DNA from: a virus
IMG/VR virus record: IMGVR_UViG_3300027747_004524
Coordinates: 32,001-96,000 of that record
Direction: 5' to 3' (one strand)
DNA: 64,000 nucleotides
Numbering within the stretch: position 1 is the stretch's first letter; the number at the start of each line of letters is the position of its first letter. Made by a program: the position numbers and the translations under genes. Shown here piece after piece: positions 54,321 through 57,408 of the stretch. The notes under the pieces were generated by a model. The model searched no databases. It was not told where the DNA came from and was given only the letters and a program-made list of their open reading frames with translations.

Positions 54321-54366
54321 TGGGACGTGAGGGAATCGAACCCCCGACCAAAAGATATGAGTCTGT
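54321..54366 (-). pseudogene. Relic 3' half of an intron-less CAU tRNA
   Basis: ACAGA-CTCATA-TCTTT-TGGTC-GGGGG-TTCGATT-CCCTC-ACGTCCC-A; no D arm on this strand. Confidence 0.7.
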
Positions 54367-54423
54367 CTCACAGTTTCTCCTTTTGGCGTCCACAACATTA
54401 TATGCAAAAATCTTTTTTTTTCA

Positions 54424-54440
54424 ACGTAGCTCAGTTGGTT
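54424..54440 (+). pseudogene. Inverted tRNA 5'/D-arm fragment
   Basis: ACGTAGCTCAGTTGGTT; its ACGT matches the relic acceptor. Confidence 0.5.
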
Positions 54441-54474
54441 ATTATTTTTTGATTAGACCATACTATATAAAAGT

Positions 54475-55041
54475 ATGGAATACGATAAGTTAAAGGGTTA
54501 TCTTGATAAGAACATGACTCTAAGGCAAATTTCAATCGAAAGCAAAAAATGTCTTGCTTCTGTTCGTTATTGGATGAAAAAACATGGGTTTAAACCTAAT
54601 TTTGCGAACTTTAAGGGAGGCTATAAACCTGGTCAAAAAATAATTGGCAATGACAGATATTGTCCTTCTTGCAAAGTTTATAGAAACATAAACGATTTTT
54701 ACTCAAGAAGGAAAACTAACTGCACGGGCTACTGTAAGACTTGTATATCTAAAAAGACTACTGAACGACAAAGAAAAATTAAGAAGGAGATGGTCGAATA
54801 CAAAGGGGGCAAATGTCAAAACCCGAAGTGCTCCACGCCAGGAGGATATAGTCGTTCAATAAATGGTTTGGACTTTCATCATATAGATCCTTTGAAAAAA
54901 GAATTTAGTATTTCTCAAATAAGGCTTACTAAGATGAACAAAAAAATTAAAAAAGAGTTGGATAAATGTATTTTGCTTTGTGCCAACTGCCATAGAGAAA
55001 GACATGAAGAGCTGCTTCTTGAAAGAAAAAAAAGCACCTGA
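54475..55041 (+). CDS. Free-standing HNH homing-endonuclease-like protein
   Basis: N-terminal HTH-like region, CPSC..YCKTC, KGGKCQ, LDFHHIDP, LLCANCHRERH. Confidence 0.88.
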   Translation: MEYDKLKGYLDKNMTLRQISIESKKCLASVRYWMKKHGFKPNFANFKGGYKPGQKIIGNDRYCPSCKVYRNINDFYSRRKTNCTGYCKTCISKKTTERQRKIKKEMVEYKGGKCQNPKCSTPGGYSRSINGLDFHHIDPLKKEFSISQIRLTKMNKKIKKELDKCILLCANCHRERHEELLLERKKST

Positions 55042-55047
55042 AAACAG

Positions 55048-55332
55048 TCCGAGAGGTGGGGCACGATCCCACAACCCACAGATTATGCAATCCACTTCGG
55101 CTTTCGCCGCCAGAACTTCTTCTGTTCGTGGTCTGGACTATGCCTTCACCTTTGTTGTTGCCAACTTTAGGTGGGTGATTATAGTCTCTACACGTTCCCT
55201 TTCGGGCTTCGCTCGGCGTTGGGTCGTCCTTTTGAGACAGGCCGTTCACCGAATTTACACCTGACTAACCACCCGTTTCCAGATGGCCGACCCGTAAAAG
55301 TCTGTTGCTCTAACCAATTGAGCTACTCTCGG
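55048..55332 (-). tRNA. tRNA(CAU), probably Ile2, split by a group I intron (exons 55332-55299 and 55087-55048)
   Basis: CCGAGAG/CTCTCGG acceptor, GCTC/GAGC D stem, ACAGA-CT^CATAA-TCTGT anticodon arm. Confidence 0.9.
55088..55298 (-). ncRNA. Compact group I intron (211 nt), no internal ORF
   Basis: 5' U.G P1 (GACU/GGUC), AAAUUCGGUGAA, AACGCCGAGC, GUAGAGACUA, AAGGCAUAGUCC core elements, GAAA L2/L9 loops, terminal G. Confidence 0.9.
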
Positions 55333-55339
55333 AATGTTT

Positions 55340-55999
55340 TCAGACGCTCTTTTGTGTGATCACCTCTTCAACCAATGACTCAATTTTTTTCTTTGCAAAC
55401 TTTTCCAAAGACAGTTCGTTTTTTGCCATCTCTGGAATTATTCTTTGACGAACCCAATTTCTTCTGCTGCCCTTGACTGCAGAGTTGGTTTCGTCCTCTA
55501 CAATATAATGCTTTAATTTGTTTCTGTCAACGTACTGTTGAAAATCTTTTTTCTTCGTTAGAAGAAATGGGTGCACAACCTTATAGTTTGGAAATAGACT
55601 CCACAAGGGAATTGGTTCGTGATCTGGTTTCCCCCTGAAACAGTTCAGAAGGTAGCTTTCAATCCAATCGTTTAAGTGGTGGGCCGTTATTAGAATTCCT
55701 TCTTCCTCTTTGAAAATAGTAGAATAGAATTCAACTCTAGCTCTTCTGCATTCTGATTCTGTGTTTAGATTATTGCCATATCCACAAATTCCTTTTATGT
55801 GAAATTCTTCGCAAAACTTTTGGAAATTTTTTTCCATTTCATCGTTTTGTTCTCTGATTTTGTGGTTAAAGTGTACTCCAACAACCTTGTATCCTTTCCA
55901 CATTAACCAATGCAAAGATGCTAAACTGTCTACTCCCATAGAAACTGTAACGTAAACAGTTTTTTCTTTGTTGAGTAATTGCTTTATGATCTTTATCAT
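55340..55999 (-). CDS. tilS: tRNA(Ile)-lysidine synthase, catalytic domain only
   Basis: SMGVDS PP-loop, HFNH, RRAR, TAHHLND..ES, HPFL, DETN, RNWVR. Confidence 0.88.
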   Translation of the reverse strand: MIKIIKQLLNKEKTVYVTVSMGVDSLASLHWLMWKGYKVVGVHFNHKIREQNDEMEKNFQKFCEEFHIKGICGYGNNLNTESECRRARVEFYSTIFKEEEGILITAHHLNDWIESYLLNCFRGKPDHEPIPLWSLFPNYKVVHPFLLTKKKDFQQYVDRNKLKHYIVEDETNSAVKGSRRNWVRQRIIPEMAKNELSLEKFAKKKIESLVEEVITQKSV

Positions 56000-56136: not shown

Positions 56137-57408
56137 ATGGCTAAGAAAACTATGAGTTGCGACTTTTGCGGCAAACCAAACAAGGCGGTAGGAACTTTAA
56201 TCGAATCACCTTCTTTTGACAAGGAGGTAAACGGAAGACCAAAGGGAACTAATTTTTTCATCTGCTATGGTTGCGTTGAATTAGCTCATAAGATGGCAAG
56301 ACAAGACAACAAGAAACAAAACAACCAGCAGAAGCAAACAGAGACTTCGGCCTATCCTGTTTCTCCTAATCCCAAAAAAGTTGTTGAGTTTCTTGATCAA
56401 TATATTATTGGACAAGATTTGGCAAAGAAAACTCTTGCCGTTTCTGTTTGTAATCATTATAAGCGTCTTATTTCTCAAGAAGACGATGATGTTAACATTG
56501 AAAAGTCTAACGTGCTTCTAATTGGCCCAACCGGATCGGGTAAAACTCTTTTTGCAAAAACCTTAGCAAAATATTTGAACGTTCCTTTTGCGATTGGAGA
56601 CGCTACAACCCTAACAGAAGCGGGCTATGTGGGGGAAGACGTAGAGAACCTTGTTCTAAAGCTTCTTCATGCTTCTGACTTTGATGTTGAGGCCGCACAG
56701 AGAGGCATCATTTACATAGACGAAATAGACAAGATAGGCAGAACAAACAATAACGTCTCCATCACTAGAGACGTTTCTGGCGAAGGTGTTCAACAGTCTT
56801 TGTTGAAGTTGGTAGAAGGAACTGTTTGCAATGTCCCTCCAGCAGGAGGCAGAAAGCATCCCGAACAACAGTTTATTCATGTTGATACCACCAACATTCT
56901 GTTTATCTGTGGTGGTACATTTACTGGTTTAAATGACATAATCAAGAAGAGAATTGGTAAAACCGCTATTGGGTTTAACAACTCCTCTTCGGATAATATC
57001 GAAGACAAAGATCTCTCATTTCAGGTTGTTGAAGAAGACTTGGTTGAGTTTGGCCTGATTCCAGAGTTGATTGGTAGGCTTCCTTGCATCACTCCCTTGA
57101 AGCAGTTTGACATTGAATCTCTTGTTAGCGTTTTGTGTGATCCGAAGGACTCTCTAATCATGCAATACAAGAAGCTGTTTAGGTTTGATAACGTGGAATT
57201 AGACTTCACAAGGGAAGCTTTAGAGGCTATTGCCAAAAATGCCCTTGATAAGGGCACTGGAGCTCGCGGCCTTAGAAGTTCTATGGAGAAAATACTCCTT
57301 GAACTGATGTACGAAGCCTCCGATCATAGGGGAGAATCGATTGTGATAACCGATGGCGTCGTTTTAGGTAAGGAAAAGCCTTGTTTTGCCAAAAATAAGG
57401 CTGCATAA
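56137..57408 (+). CDS. clpX: ClpX ATPase
   Basis: CDFC zinc finger, [34 protein letters not shown]. Confidence 0.96.

Follow-up and report, generated by a model that had tools for sequence, protein, structure and literature searches.

We analysed a 64,000-nucleotide (nt) stretch of DNA, here called the window, which comprises bases 32001-96000 of a 122.9-kb IMG/VR virus contig (IMGVR_UViG_3300027747_004524). The window contains a gene for a short, one-domain form of the lysidine-forming enzyme TilS (mini-TilS), followed on the same strand by a tRNA(CAU) gene that is split by a group I intron; a gene for an HNH endonuclease converges on the tRNA (Table 1). The locus is probably a conserved AUA-decoding module of huge phages, consisting of one-domain TilS and a dedicated tRNA-Ile2(CAU), which has been colonised by two selfish elements. 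CheckV puts the completeness of the contig at approximately 25%, and it is therefore a fragment of a huge phage. Its G+C content is 38%, and near-identical DNA is present in freshwater and lake metagenomes from several studies, no RNA run being among those listed for the stretch.

Conservation of the pairing was examined at related loci, designated below by numbers preceded by L. The surroundings of eight mini-TilS family members, representing seven distinct loci, were surveyed in assemblies, and further loci were retrieved from IMG/VR by an alignment query, a single-protein query having returned none. A CAU tRNA was found directly downstream of mini-TilS on the same strand at six of the seven distinct assembly loci, and downstream on the same strand at 15 of 19 assessable IMG/VR loci, some of them near-duplicates. 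The two genes are 7 nt apart in L011, 3 nt in L017, about 270 nt in L018 and about 1 kb in L014/L005, and in L013 and L016 the tRNA overlaps the end of the tilS open reading frame (ORF). At least four acceptor-stem types occur among the linked tRNAs (CCGAGAG, CCGACTA, GGGCCGA/GGGCCAT and GGGACGT/GGGGCGT), and every one examined has the pair G3-C70. Those of the GGGCC type have C4-G69 and C5-G68 as well, as seen in L017, L018, L143, L151 and L154. Among 1070 CAU tRNAs from 234 bacterial genomes, G3/A3 and C70/T70 exclude both Met and fMet, and C4-G69 with C5-G68 is frequent in tRNA-Ile without being universal (Silva et al. 2006, PMC1635315). In 120 ORFs of the contig, AUA is the commonest isoleucine codon (28.2 per 1000 codons, 46.6% of isoleucine codons). 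Mini-TilS with its CAU tRNA is a conserved phage module. Because of the linkage, the G3-C70 pair in all linked tRNAs and the prevalence of AUA, taken together, a phage-borne TilS with its own tRNA-Ile2 for AUA is the best reading, on circumstantial evidence.

In the window, the tRNA extends from C1 at 55332 to A73 at 55048, CCA is not encoded, and 7 nt separate C1 from the tilS stop codon (TGA, 55342-55340) on the same strand. The default run of ARAGORN did not detect a tRNA at 55048-55332. When introns were allowed it reported a split tRNA of 285 nt with a 211-nt insert, the boundary being set so as to give Lys(UUU). Only one placement of the boundary yields both U at the end of the first exon, U(-1), and a terminal G in the intron: exon 1 ending ...ACAGACU, an intron running from UUUACGGGUC... 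to ...GGAUUG, and exon 2 beginning CAUAAUCUGU... With this placement exon 1 ends in C32 U33 (55300-55299) and exon 2 starts with C34 A35 U36. In the closest relative, the 444-kb contig L011 (mini-TilS 72% identical), the same tRNA follows tilS after 7 nt and is uninterrupted, reading ...ACAGACT CAT AATCTGT..., and the U33|C34 junction is therefore unambiguous. Acceptor-stem pairs 5-68 and 6-67 both show compensatory changes between the tRNAs of the window and L011, indicating that both copies have been kept as working cloverleaves.

The spliced anticodon loop, CUCAUAA, has the usual 7 nt with U33, the CAU anticodon and A37. Features of initiator tRNAs are absent: C1-G72 is paired, the anticodon stem (ACAGA/UCUGU) lacks the three consecutive G-C pairs typical of initiators, and the D-stem (GCUC/GAGC) has no A11-U24. 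The tRNA has G3-C70, followed by A4-U69 and G5-C68 where the GGGCC type has C4-G69 and C5-G68. One could ask whether it is an elongator tRNA-Met. Mini-TilS would then have the host's tRNA-Ile2 or a different phage tRNA as its substrate, and adjacency would reflect nothing more than shared expression. The CAU anticodon would fit, as would A26 and the GGGUU variable loop, which resemble those of E. coli elongator tRNA-Met, and the absence of C4-G69 and C29-G41, which are IleRS/TilS elements in E. coli; the short TilS of phage PA5oct, moreover, has no adjoining tRNA. On the other side, the linkage persists among TilS proteins with no more than 47-75% identity and with tRNAs of four acceptor-stem types, every one of them with G3-C70, and some of the linked tRNAs carry the full GGGCC signature of Ile2. 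G3-C70 also excludes Met and fMet in the 234 bacterial genomes (PMC1635315). On all these counts we consider an elongator tRNA-Met improbable.

The enzyme assignment was made from profile, structure and family comparisons. Mini-TilS scores above the curated cut-off of TIGR02432, an equivalog model for the TilS N-domain (101.1 bits against 93.6), and matches PF01171 with 94.8 bits; with the full-length TilS model NF007942 it scores 59 bits against a cut-off of 606. Its only sequence relatives in the Protein Data Bank are TilS proteins, the alignment covering residues 19-228 of the 317-amino-acid (aa) Aquifex chain 1wy5. Nothing follows the N-domain and its linker helix, and the C-terminal tRNA-binding domains of the solved TilS structures are missing. 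An AlphaFold2 model (pLDDT 91.1) gave TilS structures 2e21, 3a2k and 1ni5 as best fold matches (TMq 0.76-0.80), and TilS structures rank ahead of TtuA, MnmA and QueC by sequence as well as by fold. More than 300 metagenomic proteins make up the family. Among the best 120, lengths are 205-238 aa and identities 50-75%, and many are encoded on contigs of 170-490 kb. The TilS motifs HFNH.LR, TAHHLND..E, EDETN and RN..R are conserved in the window protein and near-invariant in the family. The PP-loop reads SMGVDS, and SMGxDS is fixed in 119 of the 120 relatives, so that the variant appears to have been selected.

The fixed SMGxDS, the loss of all tRNA-binding C-terminal domains and the low score with the full-length model could also point to a diverged PP-loop enzyme with a product other than lysidine, for example another modification of C34 or the anticodon loop of the linked tRNA. 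Since the protein passes the equivalog cut-off, keeps the TilS motifs, has TilS structures as its best matches by sequence and fold, and is accompanied by a tRNA that always has C34 in a CUCAUAA loop, we regard this as very unlikely. A preliminary description made from the DNA alone had placed the end of tilS at 55340 and the start of the tRNA at 55332 on the same strand, put an intron with a U·G P1 and a terminal G between U33 and C34, argued from a Watson-Crick 1-72 pair that the tRNA is not an initiator, and ascribed to the 219-aa TilS a catalytic domain only. All of these were borne out here, the empty allele of L011 fixing the junction, the 1-72 pair being C-G, and nothing beyond the N-domain being present in the protein. 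Its proposal that the phage supplies its own enzyme-substrate pair is supported by the linkage at 6/7 and 15/19 loci, the constant G3-C70 and the predominance of AUA.

Table 1. Features of the mini-TilS locus (positions in the window)
Feature	Position	Strand	Basis
Mini-TilS gene, 219 aa + stop; PP-loop ATPase domain only	55340-55999	(-)	TIGR02432, PF01171
tRNA(CAU) 5' exon, positions 1-33, ending C32 U33	55299-55332	(-)	ARAGORN; L011 empty-site allele
tRNA(CAU) 3' exon, positions 34-73: C34 A35 U36 A37 A38, T-loop AUCGUGC, discriminator A73	55048-55087	(-)	
Group I intron, IC3-like, 211 nt, no ORF	55088-55298	(-)	RF00028 full model + covariation
Intron internal guide sequence GGUC	55292-55289	(-)	
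Intron P2	55288-55267	(-)	
Intron P3	55261-55258 with 55177-55174	(-)	
Intron P4	55253-55247 with 55218-55212	(-)	
Intron P7	55186-55181 with 55141-55136	(-)	
Intron P8	55173-55170 with 55150-55147	(-)	
Intron P9	55131-55128 with 55095-55092	(-)	
Intron terminal G	55088	(-)	
Bracketing-stem 5' arm; overlaps last tilS codons + stop	55335-55347	(-)	Flank duplex
Bracketing-stem 3' arm (55046-55034), then U8 (55033-55026); terminator-like	55026-55046	(-)	
Free-standing HNH endonuclease gene, convergent with tRNA	54475-55041	(+)	PF01844, weak (17.7 bits); CANCHRERH motif
Insert, polymorphic in population, ~1.02 kb	54357-55380		Run X3 contigs
Remnant of older intron-less tRNA(CAU), ~positions 29-73, one anticodon-loop base lost	54321-54366	(-)	Rfam T-arm match; X3

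The intron was compared with the Rfam group I model RF00028 in a 321-base stretch. The match, at 55111-55292 on the (-) strand, covers the whole model (1-253) with 26.2 bits (E 7e-5), against an Rfam curated cut-off of 50. According to a preprint (Williams 2020, bioRxiv 10.1101/2020.01.27.920355), the RF00028 seed is without any bacterial intron, and a threshold of 18-20 bits was used there for raw hits. As the score is below the cut-off, group I membership rests on a covariation test. A P1-P9 structure of 56 pairs, including the P3/P7 pseudoknot, was written onto an alignment of eight related introns. In this alignment 96.9% of cells were paired and 21 pairs had changed on both sides; none of 500 shuffles was as good, and sliding the structure by 1-3 columns reduced pairing to 32-44%. 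Helices P2, P5, P6a, P8, P9a and P9b covary, and P3, P7 and P9 are invariant. P1 consists of G30-C, A31-U, C32-G and U33·G, formed with intron bases 55289-55292, and the U·G pair is present in 8/8 relatives. The copy of the intron in L005 is 95% identical to that of the window, and a P2 pair has changed from C-G to U-A between them. We take the intron as an intact IC3-type ribozyme, which would be expected to self-splice. An alternative from RNAalifold pairing the guide GGUC with GACC at 55133-55130 is invariant and overlaps P9, and was not adopted. Elsewhere on the contig RF00028 gave a second match, of 12.1 bits (G000:C1:4876-5057); it falls within a coding region and was discounted as a chance hit.

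Related introns were sought with a core 29-mer and a looser pattern, which yielded nine phage contigs in IMG/VR, all with the intron in a tRNA gene. Four of these introns interrupt CAU tRNAs after U33, four interrupt tRNA-Leu(UAA) after U33, and one is at the classical 34/35 site of tRNA-Leu(UAA). An exact 25-mer of the intron core had no match in 185,579 species genomes. A looser P4 pattern matched at least 120 bacterial loci, which were sorted by the U(-1)/terminal-G rule. Among the matches listed, most are Leu(UAA) 34/35 introns, accompanied by Arg(CCU) and Ile2 introns after position 36, by CAU tRNAs of initiator type that are interrupted after U33 in a few metagenome-assembled genomes (MAGs), two of them labelled candidate-phyla bacteria, and by tRNA-Ile2-type genes split after U33 in Opitutae and Burkholderiales. 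The nearest cellular introns among these matches are at the same site in tRNA-Ile2 genes of Opitutus/Opitutia MAGs, with 81-84% identity. The intron type is thus known biology in bacteria.

Some members of the intron family were observed in other settings. A 443-nt relative occupies a phage tRNA-Leu(UAA) gene in L007 (2660-3118; identical in L008), and its P6 insert contains three T-arm-like hairpins, GAGTTCGATTCTC, GTGGTTCGATTCCAC and CTGGTTCGAATCCAG. In runs X1 and X2, loose ends at 55093 and 55293 led to further contigs, among them one of 20 kb, in which a related intron interrupts another CAU tRNA with a 3' exon beginning CATAATTCCGAGG; the community thus contains multiple copies of the intron family.

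The locus is polymorphic. Run X3, a public DNA run of another study, contains two forms between shared flanks of depth 23-24. The insert form is a 1076-nt contig colinear with the window (depth 11.6), and the empty form is an 87-nt contig (depth 7.5) that joins 54356 to 55381 via 36 bases. Together with window bases 54321-54356, these 36 bases make a perfect intron-less tRNA(CAU), identical to the one beside mini-TilS in L156. The empty form and the tRNA remnant therefore indicate that approximately 1.02 kb was inserted, replacing the 5' part of the resident tRNA. The insert brought the last 13 tilS codons, the intron-containing tRNA and the HNH gene with its upstream region. The breakpoint on its right falls within the anticodon arm, a few bases away from where the intron is inserted. 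Two other signals were traced elsewhere: the raised depth over 55093-55293 is due to other contigs with related introns and not to the window locus, and a joint of 54349 to 55304 belongs to an unrelated tRNA-Val-like contig. A look-alike of a tRNA 5' half (ACGTAGCTCAGTTGGTTA) was noted at 54424-54441 (+), just upstream of the HNH start; it is inverted with respect to the tRNA remnant 60 nt away and is overlapped by promoter-like hexamers.

The HNH gene ends 6 nt from the 3' end of the tRNA, and its DNA matches annotated phage HNH homing endonucleases. Its product is 52% identical over the whole length to an ORF at the same position beside the intron-less tRNA(CAU) of L152, and is also homologous to HNH ORFs of L013 and L150. 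Next to the 95%-identical intron of L005 is an HNH gene unrelated to that of the window, and an Endo VII gene is near the tRNA in L140 and L147. These neighbourhoods mark the 3' flank of the tRNA as a hot spot for free-standing nuclease genes, whether or not an intron is present. That the intron and the HNH gene are one travelling unit is weakened by the unrelated HNH gene in L005 and by the presence of the window's HNH family beside intron-less alleles, and the two are best seen as separate selfish elements.

The distribution of introns also bears on what the intron does. Most mini-TilS-linked tRNAs are intron-less; L005/L014 have the same intron as the window, and L144/L145 and L153 have a different intron, of 191 nt, after U36 at the site known from Azoarcus. 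As intron-less alleles are the majority, two intron classes occur at the locus and the insert is polymorphic in X3, the intron gives the impression of a mobile passenger rather than a switch. The preliminary description had seen it differently, with splicing and lysidine formation as two sequential checkpoints and an unspliced precursor that hides the anticodon from host anticodon nucleases. The intron does interrupt the loop at the target base of TilS, and the 5' strand of the anticodon stem is taken up in P1, so that TilS cannot act before splicing; the order of the two steps stands, because the anticodon loop does not exist until the intron is removed. A selected regulatory gate, timing AUA decoding or shielding the anticodon, could in addition draw on the purifying selection seen on the intron core, yet the same selection is expected for a selfish intron in a needed gene. 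A designed gate does not agree with the absence of the intron from most homologous loci, the unrelated intron after U36 in other lineages, the same intron family in phage tRNA-Leu(UAA) genes, or an insert that is polymorphic within one sample. Protection from nucleases is unsupported, the mature tRNA being as exposed as any other. We therefore hold a regulatory gate to be most unlikely. The check with a tRNA finder and group I models that had been suggested gave a split tRNA, labelled Lys(UUU), and a full-length RF00028 match with a score below the cut-off.

Several points weigh against reading the locus as a phage AUA-decoding module with two selfish elements. In the enzyme, SMGxDS replaces the canonical SGGxDS of the PP-loop, and the C-terminal domains are missing from a protein that would have to tell tRNA-Ile2 from tRNA-Met. 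The tRNA of the window lacks C4-G69 and C29-G41, and its T-loop, AUCGUGC (55061-55067), is unusual in having A54/U58 instead of U54/A58. The 3-70 rule was derived from bacterial and not from phage tRNAs. Insufficient AUA decoding in the host is a presupposition of this reading. For the intron, there is the RF00028 score below the curated cut-off, and for the insert, the empty form depends on a single Logan contig of 87 nt, in which 21 bases match on one side and 30 on the other. The T-loop change is an apparent swap of the 54-58 tertiary pair; it is also present in the intron-less alleles of L011 and L016, and the loop is a normal UUCGAxU in L005, L013 and L017.

From the comparisons above we infer splicing in vivo, lysidine formation, isoleucine identity and the action of the HNH protein, and the following pathway is proposed. 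Transcribed together with tilS, probably, up to the stem that brackets the tRNA and its U-run, the tRNA precursor would undergo guanosine-initiated self-splicing of the 211-nt intron, with P1 formed between exon GACU and intron GGUC (U33·G) and the terminal G at 55088. Splicing would join U33 to C34 and so create the CUCAUAA anticodon loop, and host RNase P and CCA-adding enzyme would finish the tRNA ends. Mini-TilS, with ATP and lysine, would then convert C34 to lysidine, after which host IleRS would charge the modified tRNA, allowing it to read AUA, the phage's commonest isoleucine codon. The intron and neighbouring HNH gene would be mobile add-ons that arrived on the insert of about 1 kb replacing the 5' part of a resident tRNA(CAU). 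A more far-reaching version, which we put forward tentatively and think rather doubtful, is that mini-TilS, which lacks every known tRNA-binding domain, forms a private pair with its own tRNA by recognising the anticodon arm alone, making AUA decoding in huge phages independent of the host's TilS and tRNA-Ile2. The need for this pair would have turned the DNA of the loop into a battleground where two classes of intron and three or more families of nuclease compete as selfish elements, and the intron would confer immunity to endonucleases cutting intron-less alleles.

Candidate signals for transcription lie around the tRNA. A stem of 13 base pairs, or up to 19 with A-U pairs, encloses the whole tRNA, and the wider flank duplex has a free energy of -21.6 kcal/mol (z -6.4 against shuffles). 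The stem is present in L011 with compensatory changes, and L017 and L018 have a stem of different sequence. Its 3' arm overlaps the last HNH codons on the opposite strand. It looks like a terminator with the whole tRNA as its loop, or a processing stem. A simple terminator scan gave nothing at this locus, being blind to a stem whose 'loop' is the tRNA itself. The 7-nt spacer and the bracketing stem with its run of eight U make co-transcription of tRNA and tilS plausible. Within tilS, about 170 nt upstream of the tRNA, there is also a strong, near-consensus sigma-70-like match at 55530-55502 (-) (TTGACA, 17 nt, TATATT; 11/12 positions), which could drive the tRNA alone if the host recognises promoters of this type.

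An intron at the same position as that of the window is known from cyanobacterial tRNA-fMet(CAU) genes; it is one of four classical classes (Leu.3Ug, Arg.5Ug, fMet.2Ug and Ile2.5Ug) to which Williams 2020 (bioRxiv 10.1101/2020.01.27.920355) adds 17 new ones. The fMet.2Ug intron shares with that of the window the U33/C34 insertion, a small IC3-type fold, U(-1) and a terminal G. The window differs in that its tRNA is of the Ile2 type and not an initiator and its carrier is a phage, and its intron is closer in sequence to Opitutae tRNA-Ile2 and phage tRNA-Leu introns than to fMet.2Ug. The Azoarcus sp. BH72 pre-tRNA-Ile(CAU) intron (Ile2.5Ug, IC3) is likewise of the self-splicing type of about 200 nt in the anticodon loop of tRNA-Ile2, the splicing of the window intron being predicted; it follows U36, leaving C34 in the 5' exon, whereas the window intron follows U33. 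Phage relatives L144 and L153 use the Azoarcus-type site. Closest among the matches listed are the Opitutus/Opitutia (Verrucomicrobiota) MAGs L022, L104, L079 and L138, in which tRNA-Ile2 is interrupted after U33 by introns that share the start (UUCACGGGUCG...) and end (GUGGUAAG) of that in the window. Their context is cellular, with no adjoining tilS, and L022 lies beside type I restriction enzyme and Thoeris genes.

TilS is annotated in the Pseudomonas jumbo phages MIJ3 and PA5oct (Imam et al. 2019, cited in PMC7318152). The PA5oct protein is short like that of the window (203 aa) and is transcribed during infection, and the annotated TilS was treated as resembling a host protein rather than as one partner of an enzyme-tRNA pair (PMC7318152). 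The PA5oct protein is 28% identical to mini-TilS of the window and has no tRNA within 2 kb. T4-like phages, like the phage described here, have CAU tRNAs with Ile2 signatures that are thought to serve AUA decoding (PMC1524935); unlike it, they rely on host TilS and have no introns in their tRNA-Ile(CAU) genes. For the HNH gene, precedents are SegB of T4, encoded in a cluster of tRNA genes, and collaborative homing, which pairs an ORF-less intron with the endonuclease next to it (PMC3984707). As in those cases, the HNH gene of the window abuts a tRNA with an ORF-less intron, and a resident allele gave way to the insert, which has a breakpoint in the anticodon arm. Unlike in collaborative homing, the same HNH family is found beside intron-less alleles (L152, L013 and L150), and the intron and HNH gene are therefore not an obligate team.

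Each part of the locus is known singly: TilS, tRNA-Ile2, IC3 introns in bacterial tRNA genes, free-standing HNH genes, and TilS in two jumbo phages. In the literature searched we found neither a one-domain TilS that is conserved across many huge phages and tied to a tRNA of its own, nor a population snapshot of a tRNA allele replaced by one bearing an intron and a nuclease. According to a 2014 review all phage introns then known were in protein-coding genes (PMC3984707), and in the later literature searched no report of group I introns inside phage tRNA genes was found. The introns in phage tRNA genes described here contradict that summary (PMC3984707). Mini-TilS and its tRNA offer a natural minimal enzyme-substrate pair for studying how TilS chooses its tRNA, and possibly for codon reassignment. 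This split gene escapes default tRNA finders and is wrongly called Lys(UUU) or a suppressor by intron-tolerant ones, so that lists of phage tRNAs, and codon recoding claimed for phages, can be in error at loci of this kind.

A few further observations concern the neighbourhood of the module. The tilS frame runs into or through the tRNA gene in the X3 variant (55381 onwards), in L013 (4001-4717) and in L016 (3001-3666), which accounts for family members of 230-238 aa. With such an overlap, RNase P cleavage would leave the tilS mRNA without a stop codon; the window has a proper stop before the tRNA. In the branch of L013, L016 and L017, mini-TilS and the tRNA are two genes downstream of RNA ligase (PF09414) and CsrA genes, which hints at a neighbourhood for tRNA repair and modification. 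IleRS and RNA ligase families were not found on the 122-kb fragment, which represents about 25% of the genome. The contig does carry, outside the window at G000:C1:112153-112590, a gene of the PolyA_pol/CCA-adding-enzyme family (83.6 bits, in an open frame of 419 aa), which fits tRNA genes without encoded CCA. Divergent from tilS, at 56137-57408 (+), lies a gene for a ClpX-like AAA+ unfoldase with the ClpX zinc finger, and this ClpX-tilS neighbourhood is common to the window and L011.

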